Source of the DNA: Candidatus Pelagibacter sp. HTCC7211
GTDB taxonomy: Bacteria > Pseudomonadota > Alphaproteobacteria > Pelagibacterales > Pelagibacteraceae
Direction: 5' to 3'
DNA length: 32,000 nucleotides
NCBI RefSeq assembly: GCF_000155895.1
Contig: NZ_DS995298.1
Coordinates: forward strand, 1,424,889-1,456,888
Below are positions 11,032-31,804 of the stretch, in pieces (the stretch's first letter is position 1; every line of letters starts with the position of its first letter). A program made the translations under genes and the position numbers. The notes under the pieces are model-generated. The model saw nothing but the letters and a program-made list of their open reading frames with translations, did no database searches and was not told the origin of the DNA.

Positions 11032-11943
11032 TTATTTCATAATAAGTTTATATTTTTTAATTATTTTATTTATATTTTTCAAAATTTGATCAATTTCAAA
11101 ATAAATTTTTTTATTATCTGGAGAAAATTTTAAATTTTGATTGCTATGTATTAAAATTTTCTTTTTTTGTCTAGATTTTTTTATTATTGTGTCAATATTT
11201 AAATTAAATATAAATTTACATCTTTTCTGAATTAATTTTGCTGTATCTCTAAGATTTAAATTTTTATATGAAATATTTATAATTGAATTCTTGAAAAATT
11301 TTTTGGTTATTATAAAGTTTAGTACTTGCATAAATATTTTTGATGGAACAAATGTCCTCTGTACAGAACCATTATTAATTATAATCTTATTTTTTTTTAA
11401 AGCCGAAACACATAAACTATGAATTATGTTATTATTAATTTCTCTTAAATTTTCATACTTTTTAAATCCAAAAACATTACCAATCCTTAAAATTGTAAAC
11501 ATATTTTTATGATTTAAAAATTTTTTAATAATAATTCTTTCAGATTCATAGTGCGCTTTTGAATAAGAATTTTTAAGATTAATTTTAGAATTTAAAGAAA
11601 TATTATTTTTTCCGTAATCTTTATAAACTTGCATAGAAGATATATAAATTAATTTGATATTATTTATTAAACATAGATCACAGATATTTGAAGTGATTTG
11701 ATTTTTTTTTTTTATTAAATTGATATTTTTTAATAATTGATTTTGATTAGGCCCTATAAGATGAACAATATATTCAAATTTTTTGAATATTTTTAAATTT
11801 TTTTTAGTAAATTTATAATTAAAAAAATTTTTAGCATTCTTTTTTCTAGAAAAAAAAAAATATTTATTTTTTTTAAAACTATTTTGATTTTTTATTAACG
11901 ATGCTAGATAACCAGTGCCACCAAAGACAGCTATTTTTGCCAT
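11032..11943 (-). CDS. Divergent SDR-like NAD(P)-binding protein, candidate NDP-4-keto-sugar reductase of the adjacent CDP-hexose pathway
   Basis: 303 aa. N-terminal IAVFGGTGYLAS Rossmann motif. The expected YxxxK region reads NSYSKAHYESE, which is atypical spacing. The ATG overlaps the rfbF stop by 1 nt (11943). The protein is extremely Lys/Asn/Ile-rich. Confidence 0.5.
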   Translation of the reverse strand: MAKIAVFGGTGYLASLIKNQNSFKKNKYFFFSRKKNAKNFFNYKFTKKNLKIFKKFEYIVHLIGPNQNQLLKNINLIKKKNQITSNICDLCLINNIKLIYISSMQVYKDYGKNNISLNSKINLKNSYSKAHYESERIIIKKFLNHKNMFTILRIGNVFGFKKYENLREINNNIIHSLCVSALKKNKIIINNGSVQRTFVPSKIFMQVLNFIITKKFFKNSIINISYKNLNLRDTAKLIQKRCKFIFNLNIDTIIKKSRQKKKILIHSNQNLKFSPDNKKIYFEIDQILKNINKIIKKYKLIMK

Positions 11944-12638
11944 TATTTAAGCCATGGAGATTTTTTATTTCTTATCATCTTATCTAATACTTTTTTATCC
12001 CTTAAAGTATCCATACAAAACCAAAAACCTTTATGTTTATAAGCAGCTAAATTTTTTGAAATTACTGCTTTTGTTAAAGGAGATCTTTCAAGCATTTCAT
12101 TTTTTTTTCCTATAAATTTTAAAAATTCAGGTTCGACCACAAAAAAACCTCCATTAATCCAACCTTTTTGTAATTGAGGTTTTTCCTCAAATTTTGTCAC
12201 TACTCGACCAGATATAGTCAACTCACCAAACCTTGCAGGTGGATGAACAGCGGTTAAAGTAATTTTTTTTTTACTTTTTTTATGAAAATATAATAATTTT
12301 TTTAAATTAACATTTGATAAACCATCACCATAAGTTAGCATAAATGTTCTTTTTAACTTATCCTCAAGTTTTTTTAGTCTAGTTCCTGTTAAAGTTTCAA
12401 CGCCTGTGTTTATAACTTCTATTTTTGCAGATATTTTTTTGTTTCTAAAATAATTATTTATGATTGAATGTTTATATCCGCTAGCTATTATAAAATCATT
12501 AAAACCAAATTTCATATAATATTTAATTATATGATCTAAAATAGGTTTAGATCCAACTGGCACCATTGGTTTTGGTATTGATCTTGTAAATTCTGCTAAT
12601 CTTGTTCCTTTTCCACCAGCTAATATTACAACTTTCAT
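11943..12638 (-). CDS. rfbF: Glucose-1-phosphate cytidylyltransferase
   Basis: MKVVILAGGKGTRLAEFTRSIPKPMVPVGSKPILDHII..., typical RfbF. The track start at 12656 is a TTG. The ATG at 12638 forms an ATGA overlap with the upstream stop (12635..12638) and is preferred. Confidence 0.9.
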   Translation of the reverse strand: MKVVILAGGKGTRLAEFTRSIPKPMVPVGSKPILDHIIKYYMKFGFNDFIIASGYKHSIINNYFRNKKISAKIEVINTGVETLTGTRLKKLEDKLKRTFMLTYGDGLSNVNLKKLLYFHKKSKKKITLTAVHPPARFGELTISGRVVTKFEEKPQLQKGWINGGFFVVEPEFLKFIGKKNEMLERSPLTKAVISKNLAAYKHKGFWFCMDTLRDKKVLDKMIRNKKSPWLK

Positions 12639-13084
12639 CCTAGTTTTATATTCCAATTATAATTAAAATATGGATCATCAAAAGGTTTCCTGGACATTTC
12701 TTCAGCTTCATGAGGTATATCTGAGCAATTAGCAATTATTGAAAACTTATTTTCCACTGATTTAAAACCATTCCAAACTCTTGCGGGCACAGTTACTAAA
12801 CTGTAATTTTCTGTTGTCAGAAAAATTTCTTGTAATTCACCTTTGGTAGAACTTTCAGGTCTATCATCAAACAATACTAATTTTATTTTACCTATAACGC
12901 AGACATAATTAACGGTCATTCTTTTATGTAAATGCCAAGCTTTTACTGTATTTGGATGAGAATATGAAAAATATATTTCACCAAACTTAGTAAAATTTGG
13001 ATCATCATTTCTCATCATGTGCATGATTTTTCCTCTTTCATCAATAATTTGTTTTTTAGGGATAATTTTGACACCTTCAATCAT
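12635..13084 (-). CDS. RmlC-like cupin, NDP-4-keto-6-deoxyhexose 3,5- (or 3- or 5-) epimerase-like
   Basis: 149 aa. The VKAWHLHKRMTVNYVCVIGKIKLVLFDDR region resembles the RmlC His/Lys core. It lies between rfbG and rfbF with overlapping stop and start codons. Confidence 0.7.
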   Translation of the reverse strand: MIEGVKIIPKKQIIDERGKIMHMMRNDDPNFTKFGEIYFSYSHPNTVKAWHLHKRMTVNYVCVIGKIKLVLFDDRPESSTKGELQEIFLTTENYSLVTVPARVWNGFKSVENKFSIIANCSDIPHEAEEMSRKPFDDPYFNYNWNIKLG

Positions 13085-18415: not shown

Positions 18416-19066
18416 TTATTTTTTCTGAAAATAATATGGTCTACCATTTTTTGATACTTTGTAAACTTTAAGCTTATTTTTTTTTATGAACTCATCTATG
18501 GCTAAGGTTGCACCTTTTATATGTGTGTAATCATCAATAAGAACTATTCCGTTTTTTGAAACATATTTATACAAAGTATTTAATACAAACCTTGTAGGTT
18601 CATATACATCTAAATCTAAATGTAATAATGATATTTTTAGTTTTTTATTTTTAGTTAAATAATTAGGTAAAGTTTTTAAAACATCTCCTTTAACAAGATC
18701 ATAGTTTGTTAAATCTTTTTTTTTCAAATATTTTTTTAAAAGTTTTACACTTATACCAAGACCAATATTATTATCATGTCTCTTAGCAAAAACTTTGTCT
18801 GCTTTATTATTTCTATACTCTTTCTTGGGATGAGGAAATTTTCCGAATGCATCAAAACCTATTACTTTCCTTTTATTTTTTTTTTCAATTAAATCTCTAA
18901 AAGTTAAAAACCTTATCAAGCTTGCACCTTTGAAAACACCACATTCAATTATATCTCCTTTAATATTCAAAATTTTTTTATAAATTTCATAATGATCTAG
19001 TAATTTCAGTATTCTTTTTTTATCTGAAGTTAAGTAAAATAAATTTTCGTATTGCCATGTATTCAT
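18416..19066 (-). CDS. TylF/MycF-type (macrocin-O-methyltransferase family) SAM-dependent sugar O-methyltransferase
   Basis: 216 aa. ECGVFKGASLIRF, LHLDLDVYEPT and IVLIDDY match the TylF family pattern. An ATGA overlap (19063..19066) links it to the upstream ORF. Confidence 0.7.
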   Translation of the reverse strand: MNTWQYENLFYLTSDKKRILKLLDHYEIYKKILNIKGDIIECGVFKGASLIRFLTFRDLIEKKNKRKVIGFDAFGKFPHPKKEYRNNKADKVFAKRHDNNIGLGISVKLLKKYLKKKDLTNYDLVKGDVLKTLPNYLTKNKKLKISLLHLDLDVYEPTRFVLNTLYKYVSKNGIVLIDDYTHIKGATLAIDEFIKKNKLKVYKVSKNGRPYYFQKK

Positions 19067-20859
19067 AGTCTATTTTCAATTATTCTTTTAAATTTTAAGT
19101 TAAAATTTTTATCAGGCAATTGAGTATAAAGATTAACAAACTTTTTCAAGTTATTTTGAACATTATCATTATTCCACCATTTTAAAGGATCATTCCATAT
19201 GTCTAATAAATGTTGATATAATTTTTCCTGGTCATCAAAAAATATTTTAGAGTTTTTTAACAATTCATAATCTTGAACAACAAATTTATTTTGATGTTGA
19301 TAACCCTTTTCCCAGAGACATAAAGTTGGTTTATTTAAAGCAAACATCTCTAATATACCAGTTGAATCATGGTTAAATAATATTAATTTTGCACTGTTTA
19401 TTGCATCGAAATAATTCTGTTCGGAGTAATCGATTTTAAATCGATCTAAATCTTTTAACTGATCTTCAATTCTATTTTTTGAAGCGTAATGAGCTCTTAT
19501 TACAGTTTTTTTAACCAGATCTGATGAAAATTTTTTACAAAGTTTTACAGTTAAATCTAATTGATTAAGTCCTTCGCTATATCTATCATATGGAACTGCA
19601 TTATATCCACTAGATCTCATTAAGATAAGAAATTTATCTACTTTTTTATTTTTAAAGTATTTTTTATTCAACAACTTAAAATTTACAAATTTTAAATTAT
19701 TTTTTTTTGTGGTATCAGTTTTGTCACCCCAAGTTATAAAATAATCACAAGTGTTACATTCATTATTATAACTGTTATCCAACCTAGTGATATATGATCC
19801 ACCATGTTGATAAACAAAATATTTTATTTTGGGATTATAAAATTTTCTCAAAGCAACATAATATTTAAATGGCTCAATACTTTCAAATGCATAACTAGTA
19901 CAAATTGCTTTAGGATTTTTTGGAAAATTTAATTTTTCTGAATATTCTATTAAATTTTTAAAATCCTCCACAATTGTTATGGGCAAAGACTTATTTAAAA
20001 TTCTTATTATTAAGTTAAAAATTTTGACAAAATGCTTGTCATAATTTTGATTATCTAATTTTACAAATTTTTCAAAATTCAAATTTTTTCTTAATTTACA
20101 ATCAAAATTAGAGTAATTAAAATTAAAATTTAAAGGATATACTCTTGGTAATTGCCCGAAAGATAAATCAATTTTTTTTTCATTAAAAAATTCAAATCCC
20201 ATATTATATAAAAAAATATTTGAATTATTGGGTATTAAATTTGTTAAATAAAACCAAAGATTAATTATATTTTGTTTAAAATTCTTTTTATTATCAGAGG
20301 ATTTTCTATTGCTTAATAATTCTGTATCATCAAATTTTTTTTCTGATAATTTAATTATATTTAATTCAATATCTAAAAAACAATTTTTTAAAATATAAGA
20401 ATAAATACATGTGTTCCATAAGTTGTTTATAGTGGCGTGTTGTATTGTATGTGTCTCTGTTGTGAAAAAATTAAAATTTGTAGTGTCATAAATAGTTGTA
20501 TAATTAATATTAAATTTTTTTTTACTTTCGATTATATTTTTATATTTAAGTATAAATTGTTGAATAAATTTTCTTAGCCAGGCTCCAATAACAATTTCAA
20601 AAAACTTTTGATTTAAGTTTTTTTCGAAAATTGAATTTAATTCAAGTTTAATACATTCTAATATTTCATAAAATAATTTATTTGATAAATTAAAATTTTC
20701 AATTCGATAACTATAATCTAATCTACTTGAAAAATATTTATCAGTTGATTTTTTTAGTTTACATTGATCATAAATAAAGCGATCAACAAATATATTTTCA
20801 AAATCATCATTTTTATTGATAAATTGATCAGATGGATTTATGATAAGCTTATTTTTCAA
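19063..20859 (-). CDS. Uncharacterised 598-aa protein; candidate transferase (possibly a phospho-headgroup or phosphoramidate transferase)
   Basis: Long intact ORF, translationally embedded between the nucleotidyltransferase and the TylF-type methyltransferase. The TTG start at 20859 overlaps the last 11 nt of the upstream gene. The C-terminal third (YQHGGSY ... ILFNHDSTGILEMFALNKPTL) is vaguely like the GT-B/TagF donor half. The function is not established. Confidence 0.4.
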   Translation of the reverse strand: MKNKLIINPSDQFINKNDDFENIFVDRFIYDQCKLKKSTDKYFSSRLDYSYRIENFNLSNKLFYEILECIKLELNSIFEKNLNQKFFEIVIGAWLRKFIQQFILKYKNIIESKKKFNINYTTIYDTTNFNFFTTETHTIQHATINNLWNTCIYSYILKNCFLDIELNIIKLSEKKFDDTELLSNRKSSDNKKNFKQNIINLWFYLTNLIPNNSNIFLYNMGFEFFNEKKIDLSFGQLPRVYPLNFNFNYSNFDCKLRKNLNFEKFVKLDNQNYDKHFVKIFNLIIRILNKSLPITIVEDFKNLIEYSEKLNFPKNPKAICTSYAFESIEPFKYYVALRKFYNPKIKYFVYQHGGSYITRLDNSYNNECNTCDYFITWGDKTDTTKKNNLKFVNFKLLNKKYFKNKKVDKFLILMRSSGYNAVPYDRYSEGLNQLDLTVKLCKKFSSDLVKKTVIRAHYASKNRIEDQLKDLDRFKIDYSEQNYFDAINSAKLILFNHDSTGILEMFALNKPTLCLWEKGYQHQNKFVVQDYELLKNSKIFFDDQEKLYQHLLDIWNDPLKWWNNDNVQNNLKKFVNLYTQLPDKNFNLKFKRIIENRL

Positions 20860-21610
20860 TAGAATTTTTAAGTACTTTGTAATCTTTTATATTATCTATC
20901 TCAAACCAATTTTTTTGGTAGTTCTCAACATAAATATTACAAATTTTTTTTTTTATAATTAATTGAAATAATGCAGTTATATCTATCTTTGATAAATTTT
21001 TTGTTTCTTTAAAAAGTTTTTGTTTTATCTTATTCCAAGAAAATGGATCTATTTTAAAAACTCCCATATACTGACCTTTAATTTTTTTATAAGAATTCGT
21101 TCTATTTCCAATTTCTATAAGTTCATTTTTATTATTTGATACAAATGTCTCTAAATCCGACAAAGGGTTAGTAAATCTTTTTTTCCAATATTTTTTCCAA
21201 TGCTTATAACTTAATATAACTATTCCTTTTTTTTTTTTACTTTTATTTAATATTTCAATTGCTTCTTTTTCATAGAATATATCCGCATAAGAAATAATGC
21301 ATTGATATTTAGATAATATTCTATCAGCACATATCAAGCTGCCAAAAATATTTGTTGTTTTCCATTTTTTATTTTTAATTTTTTTAATTTTTCTAAATTG
21401 TTTAAATTGATCACTTTTATACCCTGTAATAATAATTATTTTTTTAAATCCAAGCTTTTCAAAATTTTCTAAAACCTTATCAATAAGTTTTTTTTTACCA
21501 ATATTTACAAAAGATTTAGGTTTATTTTTTGTCAATACTCCCATTCTAGAACCTCGCCCAGCAGCAAGAATGATTGGAATAATTTTGTTTGAATGAGATT
21601 TTAAATTCAT
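20849..21610 (-). CDS. Nucleotidyltransferase (LicC/sugar-phosphate NTase fold); candidate CTP:phosphoglutamine cytidylyltransferase (Cj1416-like)
   Basis: 253 aa. IIPIILAAGRGSRMG...KPKSFV signature. It is the first gene of the long minus-strand run. Confidence 0.65.
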   Translation of the reverse strand: MNLKSHSNKIIPIILAAGRGSRMGVLTKNKPKSFVNIGKKKLIDKVLENFEKLGFKKIIIITGYKSDQFKQFRKIKKIKNKKWKTTNIFGSLICADRILSKYQCIISYADIFYEKEAIEILNKSKKKKGIVILSYKHWKKYWKKRFTNPLSDLETFVSNNKNELIEIGNRTNSYKKIKGQYMGVFKIDPFSWNKIKQKLFKETKNLSKIDITALFQLIIKKKICNIYVENYQKNWFEIDNIKDYKVLKNSIEK

Positions 21611-21647
21611 TATAAGAATTTAGTATATTATTATATCATAAATTTCT
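21611..21647. promoter_or_regulatory. 37-bp divergent intergenic region that must serve the start of both the minus-strand run and the plus-strand cassette
   Basis: It lies between ATG 21610 (-) and ATG 21648 (+), with sequence tataagaatttagtatattattatatcataaatttct. It is AT-only apart from a few bases. No confident -35/-10 assignment is possible in this composition. Confidence 0.35.
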
Positions 21648-22790
21648 ATGAATTACTGTAAGCGTTGTATAATGCCAAATACCCGACCTGACCAATATCT
21701 TAATAATGAAGGTGTTTGTAATGGTTGCCTAAGTTATGATTATCAAAAAAAGATAGATTGGGATAAAAGAAAAAAAGATTTATTGAGAATTATAAGTGAA
21801 AAAAAATTAAATAAAGATAAATGGAATTGTGTTGTTCCTGGCAGTGGTGGAAAAGATAGTACTTATCAAATTATAAAAGCAAAAGAATTAGGATTAAATC
21901 CAATATTTGTGACAGCTTCCACATGTGATTTATCAGAAATTGGAAGAAAAAATTTAGAAAATATTAAGAAAATTGGTTTTGATGTTATAGAAATCTCCAA
22001 TAACGCTAAAGTAAGATCTAAAATAAACAAAATAGGTTTAGAATTACTTGGTGATATATCTTGGCCAGAGCATGTTTCGATCTTCACAGCCCCAGTAAAG
22101 TTTGCTCTAGCTTATGATATACCTTTAATTTTATGGGGAGAAAATCCTCAATTAGAGTACGGTGGACCTGATGGTTCACTAAATAATAGTATTCTAGATC
22201 AGAAATGGATGGAAGAATTTGGTGGACTTATAGGATTTAGAGTCTCAGACCTAATTGAAAACCATGGATTTAAAAAAAATGAATTAGAAATTTATGATTA
22301 TCCTGCTCAAAATATTTTGAAAAAAAAATCAATTTTAGGAATATTTCTTGGCTATTATGAAAGATGGGACTCTTTGAGAAATTATGAAGTTTCAAAAGAT
22401 AATGGCTTTTTAGCATATGAACCAGAATTAGAAGGTTGTTATTTTAATTTTGAAAAAATTGACAACCATCAACATGGTATTCATGACTACTTTAAATTCC
22501 TTAAATTTGGATTTGCTAGAGCAACTGATCAATTGTGTTATATGATTAGAAGGAACAAAATTACTAGGGAAAATGCTATAAACTTAGTAAAAAAATTAGA
22601 GGGTAAATATCCTAAGTCATACATGGGAAAATCTTTAGATCAAATTTTGTCTAAGATAGATATGACTGAAAAAGAATTTATTAAAATTTGTGATAATTTT
22701 ACTAATAAAAAAATTTTTAAAACTGATCAAGGTGGAAAATTAATTAAAGATGAATATGGTTCATTGGTAAAATTGAAATATGACAATTAA
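21648..22790 (+). CDS. wbuX: N-acetyl sugar amidotransferase (WbuX/PseA/LfnA type, PP-loop ATP pyrophosphatase)
   Basis: 380 aa. N-terminal Cys-rich CKRCIMPNTRPDQYLNNEGVCNGCLSY and PP-loop VVPGSGGKDSTYQ. Confidence 0.85.
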   Translation: MNYCKRCIMPNTRPDQYLNNEGVCNGCLSYDYQKKIDWDKRKKDLLRIISEKKLNKDKWNCVVPGSGGKDSTYQIIKAKELGLNPIFVTASTCDLSEIGRKNLENIKKIGFDVIEISNNAKVRSKINKIGLELLGDISWPEHVSIFTAPVKFALAYDIPLILWGENPQLEYGGPDGSLNNSILDQKWMEEFGGLIGFRVSDLIENHGFKKNELEIYDYPAQNILKKKSILGIFLGYYERWDSLRNYEVSKDNGFLAYEPELEGCYFNFEKIDNHQHGIHDYFKFLKFGFARATDQLCYMIRRNKITRENAINLVKKLEGKYPKSYMGKSLDQILSKIDMTEKEFIKICDNFTNKKIFKTDQGGKLIKDEYGSLVKLKYDN

Positions 22791-23400
22791 GGTGGCCATA
22801 ATTAATTATGGAATAGGAAATATAAGATCCCTTTACAATAGTTTAAAAAGAATAGAAGTTGAAGCTGAAATAATTACAGATCCAGATACTATTGATCAAT
22901 TTGATAAAGTTTTTTTACCAGGAGTTGGATCATATAAGGATGCAATAAAAAAAATAAAATATATTGGTTGGGATAAAGCTATTAAAAATTTTTCATCCAA
23001 TCAAAATAAAAGCTTATTTGGAATATGTGTAGGAATGCAAATCTTGAGCACATGTGGATATGAATATGGAAAATCAAATGGATTAAATATTATAAAAGGA
23101 GAAGTTTTAAGAATGAATAAGCATGGCTGTGATTTAAAGCTTCCTCATATTGGCTGGAATAATATTAAAATCATAAATCAAAATTTAATTACAGAAAACT
23201 TAAATAATGAGGCTAATTTTTACTTTGTAAATAGTTATTCTTTAAGAATTGTTAATTCTAACGAATTAATCGCTACAACATCATATGGCATTGAATTTCC
23301 ATCGATTATTAATAAACAAAATGTATTTGGAACACAGTTTCATCCAGAAAAAAGTTCAAAAGCTGGAATGCAAATTCTTAAAAACTTTTTAAATGCTTAA
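22780..23400 (+). CDS. hisH: HisH-like glutamine amidotransferase subunit (WbuY type paralogue of imidazole glycerol phosphate synthase HisH)
   Basis: 206 aa. IAIINYGIGN, nucleophile elbow GICVGMQIL and FGTQFHPEKS. An 11-nt overlap links it to wbuX. Confidence 0.9.
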   Translation: MTIKVAIINYGIGNIRSLYNSLKRIEVEAEIITDPDTIDQFDKVFLPGVGSYKDAIKKIKYIGWDKAIKNFSSNQNKSLFGICVGMQILSTCGYEYGKSNGLNIIKGEVLRMNKHGCDLKLPHIGWNNIKIINQNLITENLNNEANFYFVNSYSLRIVNSNELIATTSYGIEFPSIINKQNVFGTQFHPEKSSKAGMQILKNFLNA

Positions 23401-24157
23401 AGCTAGAATAATTACTACAATGCTTTGGAATGGTTCTACCCTCGTAAAAGGTAATAAATTTGAAAATGAAAAAAGATCTGCTGGATCACCTCTCACGACT
23501 GTGAAAATTTACAATTCAAGAGATGTTGATGAAATTTTATTTTTTGACATATCTCGAAATAATAAAATAATCGATAAAGATTTTATTTTAAGTATTACTG
23601 ATTGTGTGAGTGTTCCTATCACAATAGGAGGAGGTATTGAAAAAATATCTCAGATGAATGATCTTTTTGAATATGGTGCTGATAAAGTTGCCATAAATAG
23701 TATTATTTATAAAAACCCAAATATCATTGACGAAGCTTCTAAAAGGTTTGGCTCCCAGGCAATTACGGTTTCAATTGACGTGAGAAAAAATAATCAGAAT
23801 TATGAATGTTATTACGATTTGGGAAAAATTAAATCAGATAGAAAATTAAACGATTTATTAGTTGAATGTGTTAATAGGGGTGCAGGTGAAATAGTAATAA
23901 ATTGTATCAATAATGACGGACTAATGAAAGGTTATGATAATGAGTTAATTCAACAAACATCATCATTGGCAAATATTCCTATTGTTGCATCTGGTGGAGC
24001 TGGAAGTTATGAACATTTTTATGAGGCTTATAAAAATGGAGCTGACGCTTTTGCAGCAGCAAGTATTTATCACTTTACAGAACACACTCCAGCAAAAGCA
24101 AAAAAATATCTTTTAAAAAAAAAAGTACCCATACGAGAAAATTTTATTATAGAATAA
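23393..24157 (+). CDS. hisF: HisF-like cyclase subunit (WbuZ type paralogue of imidazole glycerol phosphate synthase HisF)
   Basis: 254 aa. TIM-barrel motifs LFFDISR, ITIGGGI, DKVAINS and VASGGAG. An 8-nt overlap links it to the hisH-like gene. Confidence 0.9.
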   Translation: MLKARIITTMLWNGSTLVKGNKFENEKRSAGSPLTTVKIYNSRDVDEILFFDISRNNKIIDKDFILSITDCVSVPITIGGGIEKISQMNDLFEYGADKVAINSIIYKNPNIIDEASKRFGSQAITVSIDVRKNNQNYECYYDLGKIKSDRKLNDLLVECVNRGAGEIVINCINNDGLMKGYDNELIQQTSSLANIPIVASGGAGSYEHFYEAYKNGADAFAAASIYHFTEHTPAKAKKYLLKKKVPIRENFIIE

Positions 24158-24160
24158 ACT

Positions 24161-24784
24161 ATGTTAAATATTAAAATAAAAAAAACAGTCAAAGAAGATT
24201 CTAAATTTTTTTATCAATTAAGAAATAATACTACCAATAGAAAGTTTTTTTTTAATTCAAAAAATATTAAATTTGATGATCATAAAATATGGTTTGACAG
24301 AAATTTTAAAAAAAAATTTTATTACACTTGTTTTTATAATAAAAAAAAAATTGGTTATATTAGAGGAGATAAATTAAATGATATAATATTTATTTCTATT
24401 GCAATAGATAAAAAATTCAGAAAAAAAAATATTGCAACCAAATGTTTTGAATTATTTGAAGAAAAAATTAAAGTTAACTCAATCTTATTCGCTAAAATAA
24501 AAAAAAAAAATACAGGTTCAATTAAATTTTTTGAAAAAAATAAATTTAGTTTATTAAAAAAAGATAAGAACATTTTTACATATTACAAAATTCATCATAA
24601 AGATTATGAAAAATACTTAAGTGCGATTAGTAAAATAGAAAATATTAGAAAAGGAAATAATATCAATTGGATGAATATTTTAAGAGTAGCATTTACCAAT
24701 TCTCCTGTAGAAGCATCAAAAATTTTTAAAAAAATTTATAGTGACGATAAGACTATTAATTTTTTATCAAAAAAACTTTTTTAA
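24161..24784 (+). CDS. GNAT-family N-acetyltransferase, PseH-like, with a C-terminal extension of about 60 aa
   Basis: 207 aa. FFYQLRNNTTNRKFFFNSKNIKFDDHKIWF resembles the PseH N-terminal pattern, and the GNAT core runs to about residue 145. The remaining residues (YEKYLSAISKIENIRKGNNINWMNILRVAF...) are extra. Confidence 0.6.
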   Translation: MLNIKIKKTVKEDSKFFYQLRNNTTNRKFFFNSKNIKFDDHKIWFDRNFKKKFYYTCFYNKKKIGYIRGDKLNDIIFISIAIDKKFRKKNIATKCFELFEEKIKVNSILFAKIKKKNTGSIKFFEKNKFSLLKKDKNIFTYYKIHHKDYEKYLSAISKIENIRKGNNINWMNILRVAFTNSPVEASKIFKKIYSDDKTINFLSKKLF

Positions 24785-24785
24785 G

Positions 24786-25826
24786 TTATAAGTGTTTTTT
24801 TTCTAACGGTGTTCCAAATTTTAAATTTTGTTTGCTTTTTTTTCCTATAACACGCTTAAAATAAATTGGGTCTAAGCCAAAAGAAGGTCGAACTATTTTG
24901 AGATTATTTTTAGTAAATTTTTCATTTTTTTTTATATTTTTTGCTACAAAGATTGATCTTTTGAACATTTTATGTCGTTGTTCATCTTTTGATAATTCAT
25001 AAGAGATTTTACCAAGACTCAACCAAGCATTTTTAGTTTCATTTACTAACAATCTAAACTCATCAGGATCCATAGAAAAGATATCATCAAAACCTCCACC
25101 TTTTTTATCTAAAGTAAAATGTTTTTCAATTATTGTTGCTCCGTAAGAAATCGATGCAACAGCTGCACCAATTCCTGGTGTGTGATCACTTAGACCAATT
25201 TCGACTTTATATTTTTTTTTTAAATCTAATATGGTCTTTATATTACTATCTTCAATCTTTGCAGGATATGAACTCGTACATTGCAGAAACGCAAAATTAT
25301 AAAATTTTTTTTTAACTAGGAAATTATAGAGATATTTTATTTCTTTTTCTGTTGTTGCACCTAACGATATTATTATTGGTTTTTTTTTCTTTATTACCTT
25401 TTCTATTAAAGGAATGTGATTGTTTTCAAATGAAGCAATTTTATATGCTGGTACATCAAAACTATCTAAATAATCTACAGAATTTTCATCAAAAGGGGTG
25501 CTAAAGCAAATAATGCCACATCTTTTTGCCTCTGCAAAAATCTCTTTATACCAGCTGTAGGGCAATGCAGCTTTTTTGTAAAGATCGTATAAATTTTTTT
25601 TGTACCATAAGCTTTTTTTATCTTTGATTAAAAAAAATTTATTATCACAGTTTAAGGTCATTGAGTCTGCATTATAAGATTGTAATTTTATTGCATGTGC
25701 TCCCACTTTTTTTGCTTCTCTTATTATTTTTAAAGTTCTGGTCATACTATTATTATGGTTTGCTGAAATTTCAGCAATTATAAATGGCTGCTTCCTTATT
25801 GTGATTTCTCTGTCAAAAATTTTCAT
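24786..25826 (-). CDS. neuB: NeuB-family nonulosonic acid synthase (NeuB/PseI/LegI; subtype not resolvable by eye)
   Basis: 346 aa. PFIIAEISANHNNS signature, a TIM-barrel body and a C-terminal SAF-like domain (VAKNIKKNEKFTKNNLKIVRPSFGL). Confidence 0.9.
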   Translation of the reverse strand: MKIFDREITIRKQPFIIAEISANHNNSMTRTLKIIREAKKVGAHAIKLQSYNADSMTLNCDNKFFLIKDKKSLWYKKNLYDLYKKAALPYSWYKEIFAEAKRCGIICFSTPFDENSVDYLDSFDVPAYKIASFENNHIPLIEKVIKKKKPIIISLGATTEKEIKYLYNFLVKKKFYNFAFLQCTSSYPAKIEDSNIKTILDLKKKYKVEIGLSDHTPGIGAAVASISYGATIIEKHFTLDKKGGGFDDIFSMDPDEFRLLVNETKNAWLSLGKISYELSKDEQRHKMFKRSIFVAKNIKKNEKFTKNNLKIVRPSFGLDPIYFKRVIGKKSKQNLKFGTPLEKKHL

Positions 25827-26494
25827 TACTTTTTCTTTATTATAAACTTACCTTTAACAAATTGATTGTTTAATGACACATCAGTTAATTCAATTTTTTT
25901 ATTCCCAAGCTTATAGAAAGCTTTAGGATAATTACTTGCATCTAACATTCTAATAAAATCAAAAATATCAACTAACTTTTTATTGATAACATAAGATAAG
26001 TTACTTTGATATGAATTTCTTCTATAATAAAATGAGGATTTACCAGTTTGTTTTTTGAATGAAATTTTTTTTTTTTTAGAGAGTTTTAGAATCATTCCAA
26101 GAGATTTTTTTTCAATATTTTTATAAATATTTTCTGCTTTTCCAGTTAATGAAATATTTGATTTCATACAGATATCTCCACTATCAATTTTATTATTTAT
26201 TTTAAATGCTGAAATTTTTGTTTTGTATATTTTTTTTAAAATTTGATTTTGAATTGGAGAGCCCCCTTTAAATTTTGGTAAATCTGATGAATGAAATTGG
26301 ATACATAAAAAATTTGAAAAAACTTTTTTTGGTATAATTTTAGACCAAAATATAAAAAAAATTATTCTAGGATTAACTTGATTAATCTTTTTCAAATTAA
26401 TATTATCTAATAAAATAAACTCTTTATTATTCTTTAAGAGATTATAATTAGAATTATCCCATTTTTTTTTAGAAATTATAATAATTTGACTCAT
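25826..26494 (-). CDS. Formyltransferase-domain protein (Fmt/PurN N-terminal domain type) lacking the tRNA-binding C-terminal domain
   Basis: HSSDLPKFKGGSPIQNQIL corresponds to the HxSLLPxxRG formyltransferase motif. The track start at 26539 is a GTG that overlaps the upstream gene by 35 nt. The ATG at 26494 (MSQIIIISKKKW) is preferred. Confidence 0.7.
   Translation of the reverse strand: MSQIIIISKKKWDNSNYNLLKNNKEFILLDNINLKKINQVNPRIIFFIFWSKIIPKKVFSNFLCIQFHSSDLPKFKGGSPIQNQILKKIYKTKISAFKINNKIDSGDICMKSNISLTGKAENIYKNIEKKSLGMILKLSKKKKISFKKQTGKSSFYYRRNSYQSNLSYVINKKLVDIFDFIRMLDASNYPKAFYKLGNKKIELTDVSLNNQFVKGKFIIKKK
26065..26077. repeat. T13 (A13 on the coding strand) homopolymer inside the formyltransferase gene
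   Basis: Counted by hand. It encodes the KKKK of LSKKKKISF. It is one of at least twelve A/T runs of 11 nt or more in the window. Confidence 0.9.
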
Positions 26495-26504
26495 TAAATA
26501 TATC

Positions 26505-27173
26505 TTAAGACAATTTTTTAAAAATAAAAAATGACTCACACATTTTTAGACCTACTGAATTTCCTCTAAATTTATAAAATGTTTTCAATGAATTTAAATC
26601 TCTACTTGTTTTTTGATCTTTTATTTCACTGCCATATGCTAGTAATGCTCTTTTTTTTATCTCCCAATATTTAGATATTTCAATGAAATAGTTAGGTGAA
26701 AACTGGTGTGGAGAATAATCTGTTGATGAGGGCACTTCAAAAAATAGAATTTCTTTACATTTTTCATTTTTTAGTGGTCTAAAGGCAGTAATTGTTGCCA
26801 TAGAAACTGCATTATGATCAACATTTAAATCTTTAAAATAGTGAGTGTATACAATGTCTGGTTTAATTTTGGATTTGGCTTTTTCAATAACTTTAATTAA
26901 ATCAAGCAGAGGATACTTATCTAATTTATTATCTTCAAATATTTGATTATTTTCTACCCACTTAAAGTTAAGAATTTTTGAAGCTTTAATTGAGGAATTT
27001 TGTCTTATTTTCAAATTTTTTTTATTCATAAATCCTCTAGCTGAAACACCATCCGTGAAAGATAAACAAAATACTTGATCACCTTTAAGATAATGTTGAT
27101 AAATTGTACCACCACAACCGATCGTCTCATCATCTTGATGTGCAACAATAACTAAAACTTTTTTTTTACTCAT
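26505..27173 (-). CDS. PIG-L/LmbE-family N-deacetylase
   Basis: 222 aa. VLVIVAHQDDETIGCGGTI (AHPDDE-type motif) and a downstream NVDHNAV histidine motif. An ATGA overlap (27170..27173) links it to the upstream amidotransferase gene. Confidence 0.85.
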   Translation of the reverse strand: MSKKKVLVIVAHQDDETIGCGGTIYQHYLKGDQVFCLSFTDGVSARGFMNKKNLKIRQNSSIKASKILNFKWVENNQIFEDNKLDKYPLLDLIKVIEKAKSKIKPDIVYTHYFKDLNVDHNAVSMATITAFRPLKNEKCKEILFFEVPSSTDYSPHQFSPNYFIEISKYWEIKKRALLAYGSEIKDQKTSRDLNSLKTFYKFRGNSVGLKMCESFFIFKKLS

Positions 27174-27775
27174 TGGTTTAGATTAAACATTTTTCTTGCA
27201 ATTTGTATCAGTTTTTTGTCAAATTTTTTTTCTCTTTCTGGATGCCACATCCATCCAAGCCAATTATATTTTTTATGCTTTATTGCTTCAATTTGATTAT
27301 CTTCAGAGTAAGCTATTATTTCAAAATTTCTTCCTAATTTTTTTATGCCATATTCGTGAAAACTATTAACTTTTAACGGGTAATCAAAATTACTTTTTAT
27401 TTTATGATATACTCTTACATGATTATTTATTTTTTTTAAAGATCCTCCCTCAACATAATTAATAAACTGTAAACCATGGCATATCCCAAGAAGAGGTATT
27501 TTTTTCTTTTTAGAAATATTTGTAAGTCGTTTTTCAACTTTATATCTCAATGAATTTTTATTAATATCATTACCGCCGCTTATTATTATTCCATTAATTC
27601 TAAGTGATCTTTGGCGTAAAAAAAAATTTAAAGTTTTTAAATCTGAAATTAAAAGTGGTTTAAAGCCCAAGGATAAAACCCAATCAATTAGTTTAGTATC
27701 TATACAAATTCTTAACTCTTTTTTATTGTAAAAATAATCTTCACGCATTGATACCAAGAGAAAATTATTTTTCAT
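27170..27775 (-). CDS. Class I glutamine amidotransferase/peptidase C26 (gamma-glutamyl hydrolase type); candidate gamma-glutamyl-CDP-amidate hydrolase (Cj1417-like)
   Basis: 201 aa. IPLLGICHGLQFIN nucleophile elbow and WMWHPERE His/Glu motif. Confidence 0.75.
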   Translation of the reverse strand: MKNNFLLVSMREDYFYNKKELRICIDTKLIDWVLSLGFKPLLISDLKTLNFFLRQRSLRINGIIISGGNDINKNSLRYKVEKRLTNISKKKKIPLLGICHGLQFINYVEGGSLKKINNHVRVYHKIKSNFDYPLKVNSFHEYGIKKLGRNFEIIAYSEDNQIEAIKHKKYNWLGWMWHPEREKKFDKKLIQIARKMFNLNQ

Positions 27776-27778
27776 ATT

Positions 27779-30115
27779 TTAGAGTTCTTTAATTAATAAA
27801 TTTTTACAATTAAGATTAATCTTTTTTGATCTTTTAATCTTTTCAAAAATAGCTTCCCCACATCCTATAGCTGCTGGGATATTTAATTCATTACATCTAA
27901 TGGTCATGTGTGAATTTGCTCCTCCATATTTAGTTATTAAACCATTGATTTTAAAACTAAAAATAAAATCAAAACCTGGATCAGCATTTTCCAATAGTAT
28001 TATTTTATTATCTAAATTATTTTCTATTTTATTGTCTAAAAATAATATTTTTCCAGTTATATTTTTTTCAGTAACAAAATTAGGTATACTTACAACAGAT
28101 GCACCCACATAAGCATTTTTATCTTCCACAATGATTTCAGGTAATTTAATTATTTTATTTAATTCTGACTCTTTTGTGTTCTTTTCTATCTTATCTTTAA
28201 TAATTGTTTTTGGAGAATTAGATAAATTCATCAATTGATCTATTGTAAGGTTTTCGATTTCTTTAGTTTTAACTTTTTGATATTTTGCAAAATTGGTTAT
28301 TTTTTCTAAAATTATATTAATACTCTTCGTAAAAATAAATTTTGCATATTCTCTGGATTTGATAGAGGCCTCGATATATTCAAATAACTGAGCTACATTC
28401 AAATTGATCATTTTTTTATTTAGCAATTTCTGAATTTTTTTTTTTTTATTATTTGATAAATTAAATTTTGCATGTTTTATGATATGAGTGACATCATCAT
28501 TAATTAAAATTTTTTTACTCATTTTAGAGTAATTATTAGATTTAATATCGTAAGTTCCAGCTCGTAAATGACCATATTTATTTAAAAAACCTTTATATGA
28601 TAGTTGTTTATTCTTTAACAAAACTTGATCATTTAAAAAGTCTGTAGTCACTGTTGAGAAAGACCTTAAAAAATTTTCAACATCTATCTCGCTTAAGATT
28701 TTAATTTCTTTCAAAGAAATTAATATATCTTTGGCAACAAAACCATGTCTTGCTAAAATTGAAAAAGGTATAATTCCATATTTTTTAAGATCTTTAATAA
28801 TTCCTTTAATCGATAAAACATTAAATTTTTTATCATAATTTTTTTCTTTTTGTTTTTTATTTAAAATTTCAATTTTTTTTAGATTATATTTTATACTACC
28901 ATGATTTTTATTTTTTAAATTGATTAGAAATATTTTAAGTAATTTATTCTCTATATCATGATGATTTTTTTTATACCCCAAATTTTTTAACTTTTTTTTT
29001 ATTTGAAATGAAAAACATGTTGGAAAAAGATCAAATTCAATTTTATCATGTGACGAAGGATGAACTTTTAATTTTAATATACTTTTATCAATTAGTTCTT
29101 GAGAAATATTTTTATTCAAATCTTTTGGCAATAAAGAATTTAAACTTTTACGAATATCAATATAAGGCCTACCAGCAAAACTTTTCATTAAAGAACTATC
29201 TTTAAAAAACTTATAGCCCATTTTTTTTCTTGCAATTAACCAGCATCTATCTGTAATTAATTTAGAATAAAGGCTATAACTTAATTTGGAAGGAAATTGT
29301 CCAATCATTTCAGCAGGATTCCAATCTGACATTTGGCTGAACATAGTTGTTTTGCCATTTAACACAGGCACATTTTTTTTTTTAAAAAATTTCTTAATTT
29401 TATAATATTCAAGTTCTAATTTTTTATTAATATCTTTTTTTGTAAATCTTTTTGATAAATTTTTTTTTAAAACTATTGGTCTAACCTGAAACAAATATAA
29501 TTGATTTTTTTTTGTCATACAAAATTCTATGTCCAGAGGAGTATTAAAACAATTTTCAACTTCTTTAGTTGCGCTTATCAATTCTTTAAATCTAGGTGAT
29601 CTTAAAAAATTTTTTTTATCTTTATATATATAAAGTGTCTTATTTGAGTAAGCTGTATTTCCCGAGGTTACTGTATCTGTTCTACCAGTTACATCATCAT
29701 AATTTATTGTATAATAATTCTCATAGCCAAGGTTATTTCCTGTAAAAATTACACCACTCATTTTAATGTTTTGAATCATTTCTTGTACTAAAATTTGTTG
29801 TTCAGAAATTTTTTTAATTTTTTTTTTATAACTTTTGATAACTTTATTTATAGATTTTGTTATTTCCTGATCATTTTTTGCATTAATATTTAATACAGAG
29901 TCAAAAGCCCCAGCAGCTGACTGTTTATTTGTGTCTTCAAAAGTAGTTGATGATCTAAATATTATTTTTTTTTTAAATTTTGTTTTAATAGTATTTATTA
30001 TATTTTGTTTGTGATCAATCCATTCAGAGATATTAAAAATTACAGACTTAGGTGTTAAAAATAATTCAATTTTATTTTCTAGTGTTTTTAGTGTATTGCC
30101 TTTTGTTTCAAGCAT
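27779..30115 (-). CDS. PEP-utilising-enzyme-family kinase (ATP-grasp/PPDK-N type N-terminus plus C-terminal swivel phosphohistidine domain); candidate L-glutamine kinase (Cj1418-like)
   Basis: 778 aa. C-terminal YGGANSHMTIRCNELNIPAAIGCG mobile-domain motif with His736 (codon 27910..27908). The N-terminal part resembles the PEP/pyruvate-binding nucleotide domain. ATG at 30115 verified. Confidence 0.7.
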   Translation of the reverse strand: MLETKGNTLKTLENKIELFLTPKSVIFNISEWIDHKQNIINTIKTKFKKKIIFRSSTTFEDTNKQSAAGAFDSVLNINAKNDQEITKSINKVIKSYKKKIKKISEQQILVQEMIQNIKMSGVIFTGNNLGYENYYTINYDDVTGRTDTVTSGNTAYSNKTLYIYKDKKNFLRSPRFKELISATKEVENCFNTPLDIEFCMTKKNQLYLFQVRPIVLKKNLSKRFTKKDINKKLELEYYKIKKFFKKKNVPVLNGKTTMFSQMSDWNPAEMIGQFPSKLSYSLYSKLITDRCWLIARKKMGYKFFKDSSLMKSFAGRPYIDIRKSLNSLLPKDLNKNISQELIDKSILKLKVHPSSHDKIEFDLFPTCFSFQIKKKLKNLGYKKNHHDIENKLLKIFLINLKNKNHGSIKYNLKKIEILNKKQKEKNYDKKFNVLSIKGIIKDLKKYGIIPFSILARHGFVAKDILISLKEIKILSEIDVENFLRSFSTVTTDFLNDQVLLKNKQLSYKGFLNKYGHLRAGTYDIKSNNYSKMSKKILINDDVTHIIKHAKFNLSNNKKKKIQKLLNKKMINLNVAQLFEYIEASIKSREYAKFIFTKSINIILEKITNFAKYQKVKTKEIENLTIDQLMNLSNSPKTIIKDKIEKNTKESELNKIIKLPEIIVEDKNAYVGASVVSIPNFVTEKNITGKILFLDNKIENNLDNKIILLENADPGFDFIFSFKINGLITKYGGANSHMTIRCNELNIPAAIGCGEAIFEKIKRSKKINLNCKNLLIKEL
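28435..28447. repeat. T13 (A13 on the coding strand) homopolymer inside the Cj1418-like kinase gene
   Basis: Counted by hand. It encodes the KKKK of NNKKKKIQK. Confidence 0.9.
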
Positions 30116-31295
30116 AATTTAATTCTTCTTGTATTTTTTTTGTTACCACTCTATTTCCATAAGCTGTCAAATGACCTCCATGTTCTTCATCGAGATAAAT
30201 TTTTTTTATATTTTTTTTAGATAAAAAATTTGTCAAATCTATTATCTTTATATCTTTAATTGAATTGAAAAAACTGCAATAATAATTTTTTTTTTTTCTA
30301 TAAAGCTCAATATCTCTTCTTTGAGGAAATATTATAATTATAGGAACTGAATTCTTTTTTCTTGAAATATTTTTAAATCTTTTAATTAACAAACTAAATA
30401 ACTTTATACTTTTTTTATCTGTATAAAGTCTGTTTGCGCTCTCAATATTATTTGAATAATAAAGGGGAAAAAGATATTTTTTCTTATCTTTATGTTTACT
30501 AAACAAAAATAAAAAAAAATTTATAAATAATTTACAATTAAAATTAAAATTTCTAAAAAAAGATAAAAGGTATGGCTTACGAAACTGAAATTTTTTAAAC
30601 TTTTTTTTATAAAAAATATCATTCTTTGATACAGTCTCTATTATTTTAATAATCTTATTTTTATGAAAATCTTTTTTTTTTGATATTGGATTTTTCCTTA
30701 ATTTTAATTTTTCACCATTTAGAAAAAAACTAGGTTTAAAACCATAAATATTACCAAATTCTAAGTAATTTTTCCAAGTTGAATGTATTCTGTTAATAGT
30801 TTCTGGAACCACCCCAATAATAGTAAAAATTGAATTTCTATGTTTATTTTTTTCATATCTTAGAAGAGCTTGGTCAAATCCAAAGTTTCCAACTCCATAA
30901 TTTATAATATGAGAATTCATTTTTTTTGATAAAATTTCTGTCCACACTTGATCATCTTTAACATAACGACCAAAAACGAAGGAGTCCCCATAAGCTTCTA
31001 TTTTTTTTTTTAAATGAGTAAATTTAGATTTTCTAGCTCCCGATGTATCAATTGAAAATTTTGTCTTTTTTTTTAGTTTATCGTGATAATCAGTAATATT
31101 AGGTCTTTTTAGCCAGCCAAAACTTTTATTATAACTTGATTTAAAAAAATTATTTACATTCTCTTTTTTAAAATCTGGATATTCTTCATTTTCAGTTATT
31201 AGCCACTGAAAGTTTTTTTTATTATGATGAACTATAAAAATTAAAAATATTTCTAAAAATAGAATAAAAAAAACGCAATATAATATATTAATCAT
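30108..31295 (-). CDS. Membrane-anchored SGNH/GDSL-like hydrolase or acyltransferase
   Basis: 395 aa. N-terminal TM helix (ILYCVFFILFLEIFLIFIV), block I AYGDSFVFG, a Gly/Asn block NYGVGNFGFDQ, and block V-like LDEEHGGHLTAYGNRVV. 8-nt overlaps occur at both ends. Confidence 0.5.
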   Translation of the reverse strand: MINILYCVFFILFLEIFLIFIVHHNKKNFQWLITENEEYPDFKKENVNNFFKSSYNKSFGWLKRPNITDYHDKLKKKTKFSIDTSGARKSKFTHLKKKIEAYGDSFVFGRYVKDDQVWTEILSKKMNSHIINYGVGNFGFDQALLRYEKNKHRNSIFTIIGVVPETINRIHSTWKNYLEFGNIYGFKPSFFLNGEKLKLRKNPISKKKDFHKNKIIKIIETVSKNDIFYKKKFKKFQFRKPYLLSFFRNFNFNCKLFINFFLFLFSKHKDKKKYLFPLYYSNNIESANRLYTDKKSIKLFSLLIKRFKNISRKKNSVPIIIIFPQRRDIELYRKKKNYYCSFFNSIKDIKIIDLTNFLSKKNIKKIYLDEEHGGHLTAYGNRVVTKKIQEELNYA

Positions 31296-31797
31296 TTTTT
31301 TTTATTAATTCTTTAATCAGTTTTAGATTATTATTTAAAGAATTTTCATCAAAACTGTTTACAATTTTTAAGTCTGAATTTTTTGGCCGTATAAACTCAA
31401 TATCAACTCCAACAACACTTTTGTTCTCTATGCCATCTTTAAAATATACATTCTTGTTGTTTCTCTCTTTTAAAATAGATATTGGTACATCTATATAAAT
31501 TTCATAATATTCTTTTATGTTTTTTCTATTCCATTCAAGCCAATCAGGAAATAAAGATAGCACTGAAACAATTACATTTACCTTATTTTGACTTAAGAAA
31601 TGTGCTAACTTTGAAATTCTTGATGCATTAATATTTCTGTCTTTAATTGAAAAGCCTAAATCATTATCAAAGACTTTTCTTATCACATCTCCATCTAAAA
31701 TTATAAATTCTCCATAATCATTGTTAAGTTCTTTTTTAAGTTTTGTGCTCAAAAAACTTTTTCCAGCACCAGATAAACCTAAAATCCAAATTACCAT
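31288..31797 (-). CDS. Adenylylsulfate-kinase-like P-loop kinase; candidate cytidine diphosphoramidate 3'-kinase (Cj1415-like)
   Basis: 169 aa. MVIWILGLSGAGKSFLS Walker A motif, with size and layout like stand-alone CysC. No cysD, cysN or cysH nearby. Confidence 0.75.
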   Translation of the reverse strand: MVIWILGLSGAGKSFLSTKLKKELNNDYGEFIILDGDVIRKVFDNDLGFSIKDRNINASRISKLAHFLSQNKVNVIVSVLSLFPDWLEWNRKNIKEYYEIYIDVPISILKERNNKNVYFKDGIENKSVVGVDIEFIRPKNSDLKIVNSFDENSLNNNLKLIKELIKKND

Positions 31798-31804
31798 AAT
31801 AAAA

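Follow-up and report, generated by a model that had tools for sequence, protein, structure and literature searches.

Homologues of the Campylobacter phosphoramidate donor pathway in a glycan island of the SAR11 bacterium Candidatus Pelagibacter sp. HTCC7211

Does a free-living marine oligotroph encode the phosphorus-nitrogen (P-N) chemistry by which Campylobacter jejuni (Cj) decorates its capsule? The question is raised by a 32,000-nucleotide stretch of Candidatus Pelagibacter sp. HTCC7211 (SAR11; contig NZ_DS995298.1, positions 1,424,889 to 1,456,888; hereafter the window), in which a sequence-only reading had matched four minus-strand open reading frames (ORFs) to the enzymes that build the activated donor of O-methyl phosphoramidate (MeOPN). 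These enzymes are L-glutamine kinase (Cj1418), CTP:phosphoglutamine cytidylyltransferase (Cj1416), gamma-glutamyl-CDP-amidate hydrolase (Cj1417) and cytidine diphosphoramidate 3'-kinase (Cj1415), and their route is summarised in PMC11800397 and PMC6429109 (see also PMC3907429). A 2019 review notes phosphoramidate-modified sugars as identified only in Campylobacter (PMC6429109). The four ORFs were confirmed in position, strand, motifs and domain content (Table 1), and they are related to the Cj enzymes by orthology-level sequence similarity, conserved catalytic residues and conserved gene linkage. The most likely explanation is that the island codes for a functional version of the Cj1418, Cj1416, Cj1417, Cj1415 route.

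The chemistry is predicted as follows. The 778-aa enzyme would load His736 from ATP and then phosphorylate L-glutamine at its amide nitrogen; the 253-aa nucleotidyltransferase (NTase) would couple L-glutamine phosphate with CTP to form CDP-L-glutamine; the 201-aa Cys-His-Glu amidohydrolase would free glutamate to leave CDP-amidate; and the 169-aa kinase would phosphorylate the 3'-OH to form 3'-phospho-CDP-amidate, a phosphoramidyl donor that resembles 3'-phosphoadenosine 5'-phosphosulfate (PAPS).

The four donor-pathway homologues

The comparator locus was sought with PCR primers for the cj1415-cj1420 region (PMC3907429). The exact sequence of primer CS-350 matched one metagenome contig (L024), which is C. 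jejuni and has ORFs exactly equal to the NCBI C. jejuni CTP:phosphoglutamine cytidylyltransferase, gamma-glutamyl-CDP-amidate hydrolase and cytidine diphosphoramidate kinase. Two further C. jejuni loci (L025 and L026) carry Cj1422-like, Cj1421-like, Cj1420, Cj1419, Cj1418 (779 aa), Cj1417, Cj1416, Cj1415, KpsC and KpsS. Primer CS-1246 and a degenerate pattern from the CS-350 peptide DKPEADLV retrieved no Campylobacter from species-representative genomes, and primer-derived Campylobacter peptides (e.g., MYNPNSAIER) were absent among 344 proteins that include 150 LIC12162 representatives. The Cj enzymes and the window ORFs were compared by BLASTP in both directions, the reverse database being the 20-kb Cj locus rather than a whole proteome. 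For Cj1418, Cj1417, Cj1416 and Cj1415 alike, the window contains a single clear best match that is reciprocated (34-40% identity; E from 1e-25 down to 1e-132), and the one-to-one match put forward by the sequence-only reading thus holds for all four ORFs. The lengths are near equal as well (778/779, 201/200, 253/253 and 169/170 aa, window/Cj).

The 778-aa ORF matches PB7211_701 of HTCC7211 (annotated as a 'hypothetical protein') at 100% identity and aligns with Cj1418 over the full length (34.5-34.8% identity; E 3e-125 and 2e-132 in the two directions; 36.9% in a global alignment). On the equivalog model NF004508 (PRK05849; cutoff 501) the ORF scores 752.7 bits over residues 2-778 and Cj1418 scores 1168.9 bits, the members tested spanning 750-1170 bits. 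Ranking closeness to Campylobacter by this score was tried and dropped, as family members all fall at 750-950 bits. The swivel motif YGGANSHMTIRCNELNIPAAIGCG is present, with His736 encoded by CAC at 27910..27908, the codon that had been assigned to it. His736 had been proposed to correspond to the catalytic histidine of Cj1418, and it aligns with His737, the phospho-carrier of the Cj1418 swivel domain, in an identical GGANSHM within YGGANSHM(T/A)IR; 42 residues follow the swivel histidine in both proteins. The same residue aligns with His825 of the Listeria rifampin phosphotransferase 5fbs, the phospho-carrier of that enzyme. The swivel histidine is invariant in 10 of 10 diverse family members, and the catalytic motifs are likewise invariant. 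The sequence comparisons support the 778-aa protein as a Cj1418-type L-glutamine kinase homologue with His736 as the predicted phospho-carrier.

The hydrolase gene begins 3 nt past the Gln-kinase stop. Its 201-aa product is the sole significant match to Cj1417 in the window (39.7% over 146 aa, E 4e-25); the HisH-like glutamine amidotransferase (GATase) of the window has no BLASTP match to Cj1417. The motifs GICHGLQ and WMWHPERE are present, and the class I GATase triad (Cys99, His178 and Glu180) is invariant in the alignment examined. The top model for the protein is NF045546 (111.8 bits), at about twice the score of the next family (GMP synthase subunit A).

The 253-aa NTase and Cj1416 are reciprocal best matches along their whole length (33.5-34.3% identity; E-values of 5e-30 and 8e-40), and the second NTase of the window (11943..12656) pairs with a heptose NTase, not with Cj1416. 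The Cj1416 family is without a curated hidden Markov model, and Cj1416 itself receives generic matches only. The 169-aa kinase, annotated as 'adenylyl-sulfate kinase' in HTCC7211, matches Cj1415 with 38.3% identity over 167 aa (E 3e-29).

Table 1. Features of the HTCC7211 window (positions are those of the 32,000-nucleotide stretch)
Feature	Position	Strand	Domains, motifs and remarks
L-glutamine kinase homologue (Cj1418 type), 778 aa	27779..30115	minus	PF01326 (PPDK_N, ATP-grasp) and PF00391 (PEP-utilizers swivel)
gamma-Glutamyl-CDP-amidate hydrolase homologue (Cj1417 type), 201 aa	27170..27775	minus	Peptidase_C26 and GATase domains
CTP:phosphoglutamine cytidylyltransferase homologue (Cj1416 type), 253 aa	20849..21610	minus	NTP_transferase; ILAAGRGSRMG
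Cytidine diphosphoramidate 3'-kinase homologue (Cj1415 type), 169 aa	31288..31797	minus	APS-kinase-fold P-loop; Pfam APS_kinase; LGLSGAGKS
LIC12162-family GT-B-fold transferase, 598 aa	19063..20859	minus	TIGR04331 / PF27859; start overlaps NTase stop
SGNH/GDSL-like protein, membrane-anchored, 395 aa	30108..31295	minus	between kinase and Gln kinase
Sulfotransferase-like ORF, 311 aa	31805..32000	minus	C-terminal 64 codons in window, rest beyond it
PIG-L deacetylase	26505..27173	minus	Pfam PIG-L
Formyltransferase	25826..26539	minus	Pfam Formyl_trans
Pseudaminic acid synthase PseI	24786..25826	minus	Pfam NeuB; TIGR03586 446 bits (cutoff 340)
Acetamidino cassette: WbuX amidotransferase, HisH-like, WbuZ/HisF-like, GNAT	21648..24784	plus	TIGR03573 325 bits (cutoff 203); TIGR01855 221 bits; TIGR03572 237 bits; GNAT by Pfam
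TylF-type O-methyltransferase, 216 aa	18416..19066	minus	PF05711 TylF, E 3e-22
Separate deoxysugar route	11943-16564		NTase, FdtA-like isomerase, 4,6-dehydratase, C-methyltransferase (Methyltransf_13/14 domains), DegT aminotransferase
PglC-type small initiating phosphoglycosyltransferase	1034-1561		
MBOAT O-acyltransferase	3300-4751		
Carbamoyltransferase	5922-7679		

The island and the candidates for the transfer stage

The donor genes lie in an island that is very AT-rich, as the sequence-only reading had described (G+C 25% over the window and 21-23% across the phosphoramidate module), and that consists almost wholly of glycan-biosynthesis genes. The G+C minima of the window (about 21%, at 19000-22000 and 28000-32000) coincide with the phosphoramidate genes. 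The island includes a PglC-type initiating transferase and several glycosyltransferases, a carbamoyltransferase, an MBOAT protein, a C-methylated amino-sugar route, the WbuX/HisH/WbuZ acetamidino cassette and pseudaminic-acid genes. Hypervariable region HVR2 of SAR11 comprises 83 genes in HTCC7211 (PMC3448164); because the gene content of the window fits the description of HVR2, the island is probably part of it. No Rfam family, rRNA or tRNA was found in the window, so the boundaries of HVR2 are not seen there. In a promoter/terminator scan of the window, promoter-like sites were at chance level and no minus-strand terminator was found.

The donor genes form two blocks, as had been reported, separated by the plus-strand WbuX/HisH/WbuZ-like/GNAT cassette and by PseI, the formyltransferase and the PIG-L deacetylase. 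The last three prolong the gene string downstream of the hydrolase on the same strand (24786..27173), and the ATGA in which the hydrolase stop overlaps the PIG-L start (27170..27173) is real. All module ORFs are intact, with start/stop overlaps at the kinase/395-aa ORF, 395-aa ORF/Gln kinase, NTase/598-aa ORF and 598-aa ORF/TylF junctions. A further locus (L018) equals the window at 100% identity over 14,222 bases and prolongs the island upstream, where it adds a methyltransferase, PseF (TIGR03584 233 bits, cutoff 206) and a second sulfotransferase-like paralogue (320 aa). Together the two give one co-directional string: methyltransferase, PseF, the 320-aa and 311-aa sulfotransferase-like proteins, kinase, SGNH-like protein, Gln kinase, hydrolase, PIG-L deacetylase, formyltransferase and PseI. 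The donor genes of this string are thus flanked by pseF and pseI and adjoin the two sulfotransferase-like genes and the SGNH-like gene. Because of this pseF-pseI string, and because linkage to nonulosonic-acid genes recurs elsewhere, the target of the pathway is likely a surface glycan that contains pseudaminic acid.

Export genes of the kps type had been described as missing from the 32 kb, and none (Capsule_synth included) was found by Pfam among ORFs of at least 100 aa, KpsM/T/E/D having been sought via Pfam only; C. jejuni KpsC and KpsS have no BLASTP match in the window. A PglC-type initiating transferase is present in the island where kps-type capsule genes are absent. The island glycan is probably assembled on a lipid carrier and heavily decorated, and the separate deoxysugar route suggests a branched-chain amino sugar.

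Candidates for the transferring enzyme are the pair of sulfotransferase-like proteins, the SGNH-like protein of 395 aa and the LIC12162 protein with its GT-B fold. The sulfotransferase-like proteins conserve a P-loop and an RNPIDxVNSW motif. Sulfotransfer_1 is matched at E 4e-4 (39 bits in the relative in L016), and 18 of 18 PDB profile matches are sulfotransferases. The order sulfotransferase-like gene, kinase, Gln kinase, hydrolase and NeuB is kept in L014, L016 and L017. It is a tentative and rather doubtful proposal that these sulfotransferase-fold neighbours use 3'-phospho-CDP-amidate to place the P-N group on a pseudaminic-acid-type surface sugar; if so, they would be the first phosphoramidyl transferases of the sulfotransferase family, and phosphoramidate glycans would be a widespread marine, plasmid-borne and giant-virus trait and no Campylobacter oddity. 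The variable half of the Cj1422/Cj1421-like proteins (L026, 1628-5398) includes 'LLRDPIExLKS', which resembles the sulfotransferase 3'-phosphate motif RxPxDxxxS. This resemblance is a lead only, the profile comparison with the SAR11 sulfotransferase-like proteins being non-significant (probability 1%). Kinship of Cj1421/22 to the LIC12162, SGNH-like and sulfotransferase-like proteins was considered and rejected (hhalign probabilities of at most 1%, none significant).

On sequence grounds, the marine version of the module has a conserved fifth member in the 395-aa protein. This protein shares 37-39% identity over the full length with the ORF that follows the kinase in L020, L022 and L023 and 74% with its L014 counterpart, and it has an N-terminal helix and the SGNH/GDSL-type motifs GDS, GVGNxGxDQA and GGH, which are invariant. 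Its family matches are to the GDSL protein 4rsh (E 1e-3, profile search) and, in Pfam, to Lipase_GDSL_3 only (E 0.011); the single-sequence AlphaFold2 (AF2) model is unusable (pLDDT 41). The protein could be the transferase or an esterase. In one SAR11-like relative (L016, 8083-9215; L017, 6922-8054) two small ORFs take the place of the SGNH-like gene; they encode 164 aa without a family and 213 aa with a weak likeness to polysaccharide deacetylase. This replacement points to a swappable accessory gene at the SGNH position.

The 598-aa ORF scores 171.7 bits on TIGR04331 (cutoff 225), and PF27859 is recorded for its homologues. Its AF2 model (pLDDT 91.4) matches GT-B enzymes in Foldseek (e.g., SPY, MurG, PseG and WaaG), and the protein has no profile similarity to Cj1421/22. 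The modelled fold would fit a nucleotide-donor transferase without saying which, leaving the protein a candidate for either a glycan or a phospho-group transferase. The TylF-type ORF, which overlaps the stop of the 598-aa ORF and has no BLASTP homology to Cj1419/20, is one among several candidate methyltransferases.

Relatives of the module in other genomes and elements

The Gln-kinase family is large and numbers at least 1617 clusters when matches are taken at E-values of 1e-10 or better. In the marine loci L020, L021 and L023 the genes are contiguous and in C. jejuni order (Gln kinase, hydrolase, NTase and kinase); a 391-aa ORF and a methyltransferase come next, and no sulfotransferase lies within 8 kb. 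The same genes are rearranged in L022, with a 412-aa ORF and a Sulfotransfer_3 gene at the edge. These compact operons share the five proteins of the SAR11 module, the SGNH-like protein included, at 33-50% identity, adjoin nonulosonic-acid genes and have a G+C content of 21-29%. Unlike the SAR11 island, the contiguous operons run on into a class I methyltransferase gene and have no sulfotransferase-like or LIC12162 gene alongside. Nonulosonic-acid genes (PseI/NeuB and PseF/CTP_transf_3) are repeatedly linked to the module, in three or more distinct arrangements.

Plasmid modules with a linked triad of Gln kinase, hydrolase and NTase occur on Azospirillum sp. TSA2s p2, Deltaproteobacterium Smac51, Vibrio alfacsensis pYa108 and Pseudohalocynthiibacter pRR4-35_2. 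Their Gln kinases score 849-946 bits on NF004508, and NF045546 is the best model for their hydrolases. Such modules lie in polysaccharide clusters in Vibrio, Azospirillum, Pseudohalocynthiibacter and a cockroach-gut deltaproteobacterium. The 3'-kinase is included on the Azospirillum and Smac51 plasmids, which, unlike SAR11, carry a true Cj1419/20-type methyltransferase: the class I methyltransferases at L002 17745-18500 (Azospirillum) and L027 12093-12845 (Smac51) have 38-43% full-length identity to Cj1419/Cj1420. Because the Azospirillum and Smac51 kinases adjoin these homologues, some non-Campylobacter modules probably make the O-methyl form. By contrast, the Vibrio (L001, 5481-14018) and Rhodobacterales (Pseudohalocynthiibacter, L003, 8263-12769) plasmid modules are without the 3'-kinase, and their Gln kinases have an N-terminal extension of 186-246 aa. 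The idea that this extension is an APS-kinase domain was rejected, as it contains no such domain. In the Vibrio module a TagF-like Glyphos_transf gene directly follows the NTase, and cysD, cysN and an SLC13 permease gene lie divergently upstream.

The kinase-less triad is also found in giant-virus metagenome-assembled genomes (MAGs) from IMG/VR (L004 8822-12364 and L005 8882-12070), where the APS-kinase-like gene is absent and the Gln kinase is 31-35% identical by tblastn; this triad suggests viral CDP-amidate synthesis. Two other IMG/VR sequences of 83 and 164 kb (L006 and L007, 10001-10276) match residues 678-772 of the Gln kinase only, at 55% identity, and may represent a fragment or a different PEP-utilizer protein. 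A preprint describes similar clusters in Borg elements.

Alternative readings and implications

Several points weigh against a working copy of the Campylobacter route in HTCC7211. Identity to the Cj enzymes is only 34-40%, values from which substrate specificity is not readable. The hydrolase falls below the curated cutoff of NF045546 (111.8 against 250 bits; Cj1417 scores 328.5), as do the hydrolases of the Vibrio and Azospirillum plasmid modules (127 and 103 bits). The NTase gene lies 5.6 kb from the hydrolase/kinase block and is not adjacent to it, and the two sulfotransferase-like genes by the kinase leave room for a sulfation reading of the kinase gene. Queries with Cj1416 and Cj1418 returned no entry of themselves in the PDB set searched; the window hydrolase returned no Cj1417-type entry from that set, Cj1417 itself not having served as a query. 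The MeOPN transferases Cj1421/22 (DUF8374 and DUF2972) have no homologue in the island by BLASTP and hhalign, their BLASTP matches in the window amounting to a weak alignment of about 100 aa to a family 2 glycosyltransferase (E 4e-5 to 3e-3 by direction), and the methyltransferases Cj1419/Cj1420 have no clear homologue in the window (best BLASTP match 28.6% over 49 aa). The support in the sequences thus covers the donor pathway only: of the proposal that the island encodes the same P-N chemistry, the donor part stands, and for MeOPN transfer and methylation the homologues are absent.

With C. jejuni the island shares four one-to-one homologues, the catalytic histidine, the Cys-His-Glu triad and the motifs of the kinase. 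By contrast, the SAR11 genes stand in two blocks amid pseudaminic-acid and acetamidino genes and the Cj genes stand beside kpsC/kpsS; the SAR11 island has neither a DUF2972-type transferase nor a clear Cj1419/20-type methyltransferase, and its extra partners are the SGNH-like protein, two sulfotransferase-like proteins and the LIC12162 GT-B protein. The SAR11 host is also a free-living marine oligotroph of 25% G+C.

The alternative that survives best, itself improbable, takes the 169-aa protein as a genuine adenosine 5'-phosphosulfate (APS) kinase that makes PAPS for glycan sulfation by the adjacent sulfotransferase-like enzymes, in which case the Gln kinase, NTase and hydrolase would end at CDP-amidate or serve another purpose. 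The two systems are alike in several respects: the kinase has the APS-kinase fold, 3'-phospho-CDP-amidate is a PAPS analogue, and the sulfotransferase-like proteins, with their P-loop and RNPxDxxxS motif, lie immediately upstream in an arrangement kept in L014, L016 and L017. The kinase is also about equally similar to a Synechocystis APS kinase (86.5 bits, phmmer) and to Cj1415 (97.4 bits, BLASTP). SAR11 genomes possess aprA, whose product can generate APS out of sulfite and AMP, as well as cysQ and one cysC (PMC5069961, Table 3). Their lack of sat and cysD (PMC5069961) speaks against this reading. The family models speak for the Cj1415 type: the kinase passes PRK05541 (139.3 bits, cutoff 127) and fails apsK TIGR00455 (114.7 against 138.7), exactly the pattern of Cj1415 (292.9 and 126.4) and of all other Gln-kinase-linked kinases tested. 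The base-contact residues may do so as well. In APS-kinase structures the Phe of the FTGIDDPYE motif stacks on adenine. FTGIDDPYE is present in the sole canonical APS kinase aligned, whereas the window kinase and Cj1415 have VVGVDIEF in common, together with NRKxxxxYYEIY, and other Gln-kinase-linked kinases have similar V/I/L-rich variants at the VVGVDIEF position. Homologues of about 50% identity also lie within Gln-kinase operons that have no nearby sulfotransferase. APS-kinase function is rated low because the kinase is Cj1415-like in every sequence test and has these sulfotransferase-free operon relatives.

Slightly less probable again is a related route to a different activated phospho compound, in which another amide or amine is phosphorylated and the product is not a simple phosphoramidate. 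The modest identity to the Cj enzymes, the sub-cutoff score of the hydrolase, partner genes unlike those of Campylobacter (SGNH-like, sulfotransferase-like and LIC12162) and the size and diversity of the family would all fit such a route. Against this, NF004508 is an equivalog model that gives every member tested 750-1170 bits, the catalytic motifs do not vary, and a glutamine route requires just such close linkage to a glutamine-type amidohydrolase and an NTase.

Quite unlikely is a third reading, in which the NTase and LIC12162 pair (19063..21610) forms an independent CDP-X module (e.g., for phosphocholine or aminoethylphosphonate) and the island has no true Cj1416 equivalent. The distance of the NTase from the remaining genes, its translational coupling to a GT-B transferase, its best PDB relatives (LicC and the phosphonate cytidylyltransferase 6pd1) and the PGAP name of plasmid homologues ('phosphocholine cytidylyltransferase family') would agree with it. 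However, the best PDB relative of Cj1416 is LicC (1jyk) as well, and the window NTase scores much higher against Cj1416 (104-129 bits) than against LicC (48.8 bits). It is also 30-50% identical to its orthologues embedded in compact Gln-kinase operons, which adjoin the Gln kinase and hydrolase in L020, L022, L023 and on plasmids, and L016 and L017 carry the NTase without LIC12162.

Finally, assignment of the 778-aa protein to phosphoenolpyruvate (PEP) synthase, pyruvate phosphate dikinase (PPDK) or rifampin phosphotransferase (RPH), unrelated to glycan chemistry, is effectively refuted by the model scores and by BLASTP to Cj1418: it has PPDK_N and PEP-utilizers domains and its PDB matches are solely to PEP synthase and RPH entries (E ~6e-6), but these matches span only about 70 C-terminal residues, and it scores at most 62 bits on the PEP synthase, PPDK, PigC and rifamycin phosphotransferase models (cutoffs 456-1350) against 752.7 on the Cj1418 family model, so that the grouping with these enzymes named in the sequence-only reading as the outcome that would tell against it was not found.

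A P-N-bonded glycan decoration had also been called undescribed for a genome of this composition. This holds for the searched literature, in which no paper links SAR11 or Pelagibacter with phosphoramidate. It does not hold for databases, in which proteins of 95% identity already bear the names 'glutamine kinase' and 'cytidine diphosphoramidate kinase', assigned automatically and independently by JGI/IMG, nor for the module itself, which is widespread. The chemistry itself is not new; the transfer stage of SAR11 differs from that of Campylobacter. On present sequence evidence, a complete and intact donor pathway is now placed in a cultured SAR11 strain, and the same module extends to marine metagenomes (over 1,600 protein clusters), to plasmids of several proteobacterial groups and to giant-virus MAGs. 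Because intact counterparts of all four enzymes stand among the pseudaminic-acid genes of HTCC7211, this rare P-N surface chemistry is probably far more widespread than Campylobacter alone.

Susceptibility to phages is probably influenced by variable glycan islands, and in C. jejuni MeOPN serves phages as a receptor. If the chemistry holds, the most abundant bacterioplankton would bear a P-N-bonded glycan encoded in such a variable island, the dissolved organic phosphorus and nitrogen of the sea would contain a P-N class not considered before, and HTCC7211 would provide a testable system for new, non-DUF2972 phosphoramidyl transferases.

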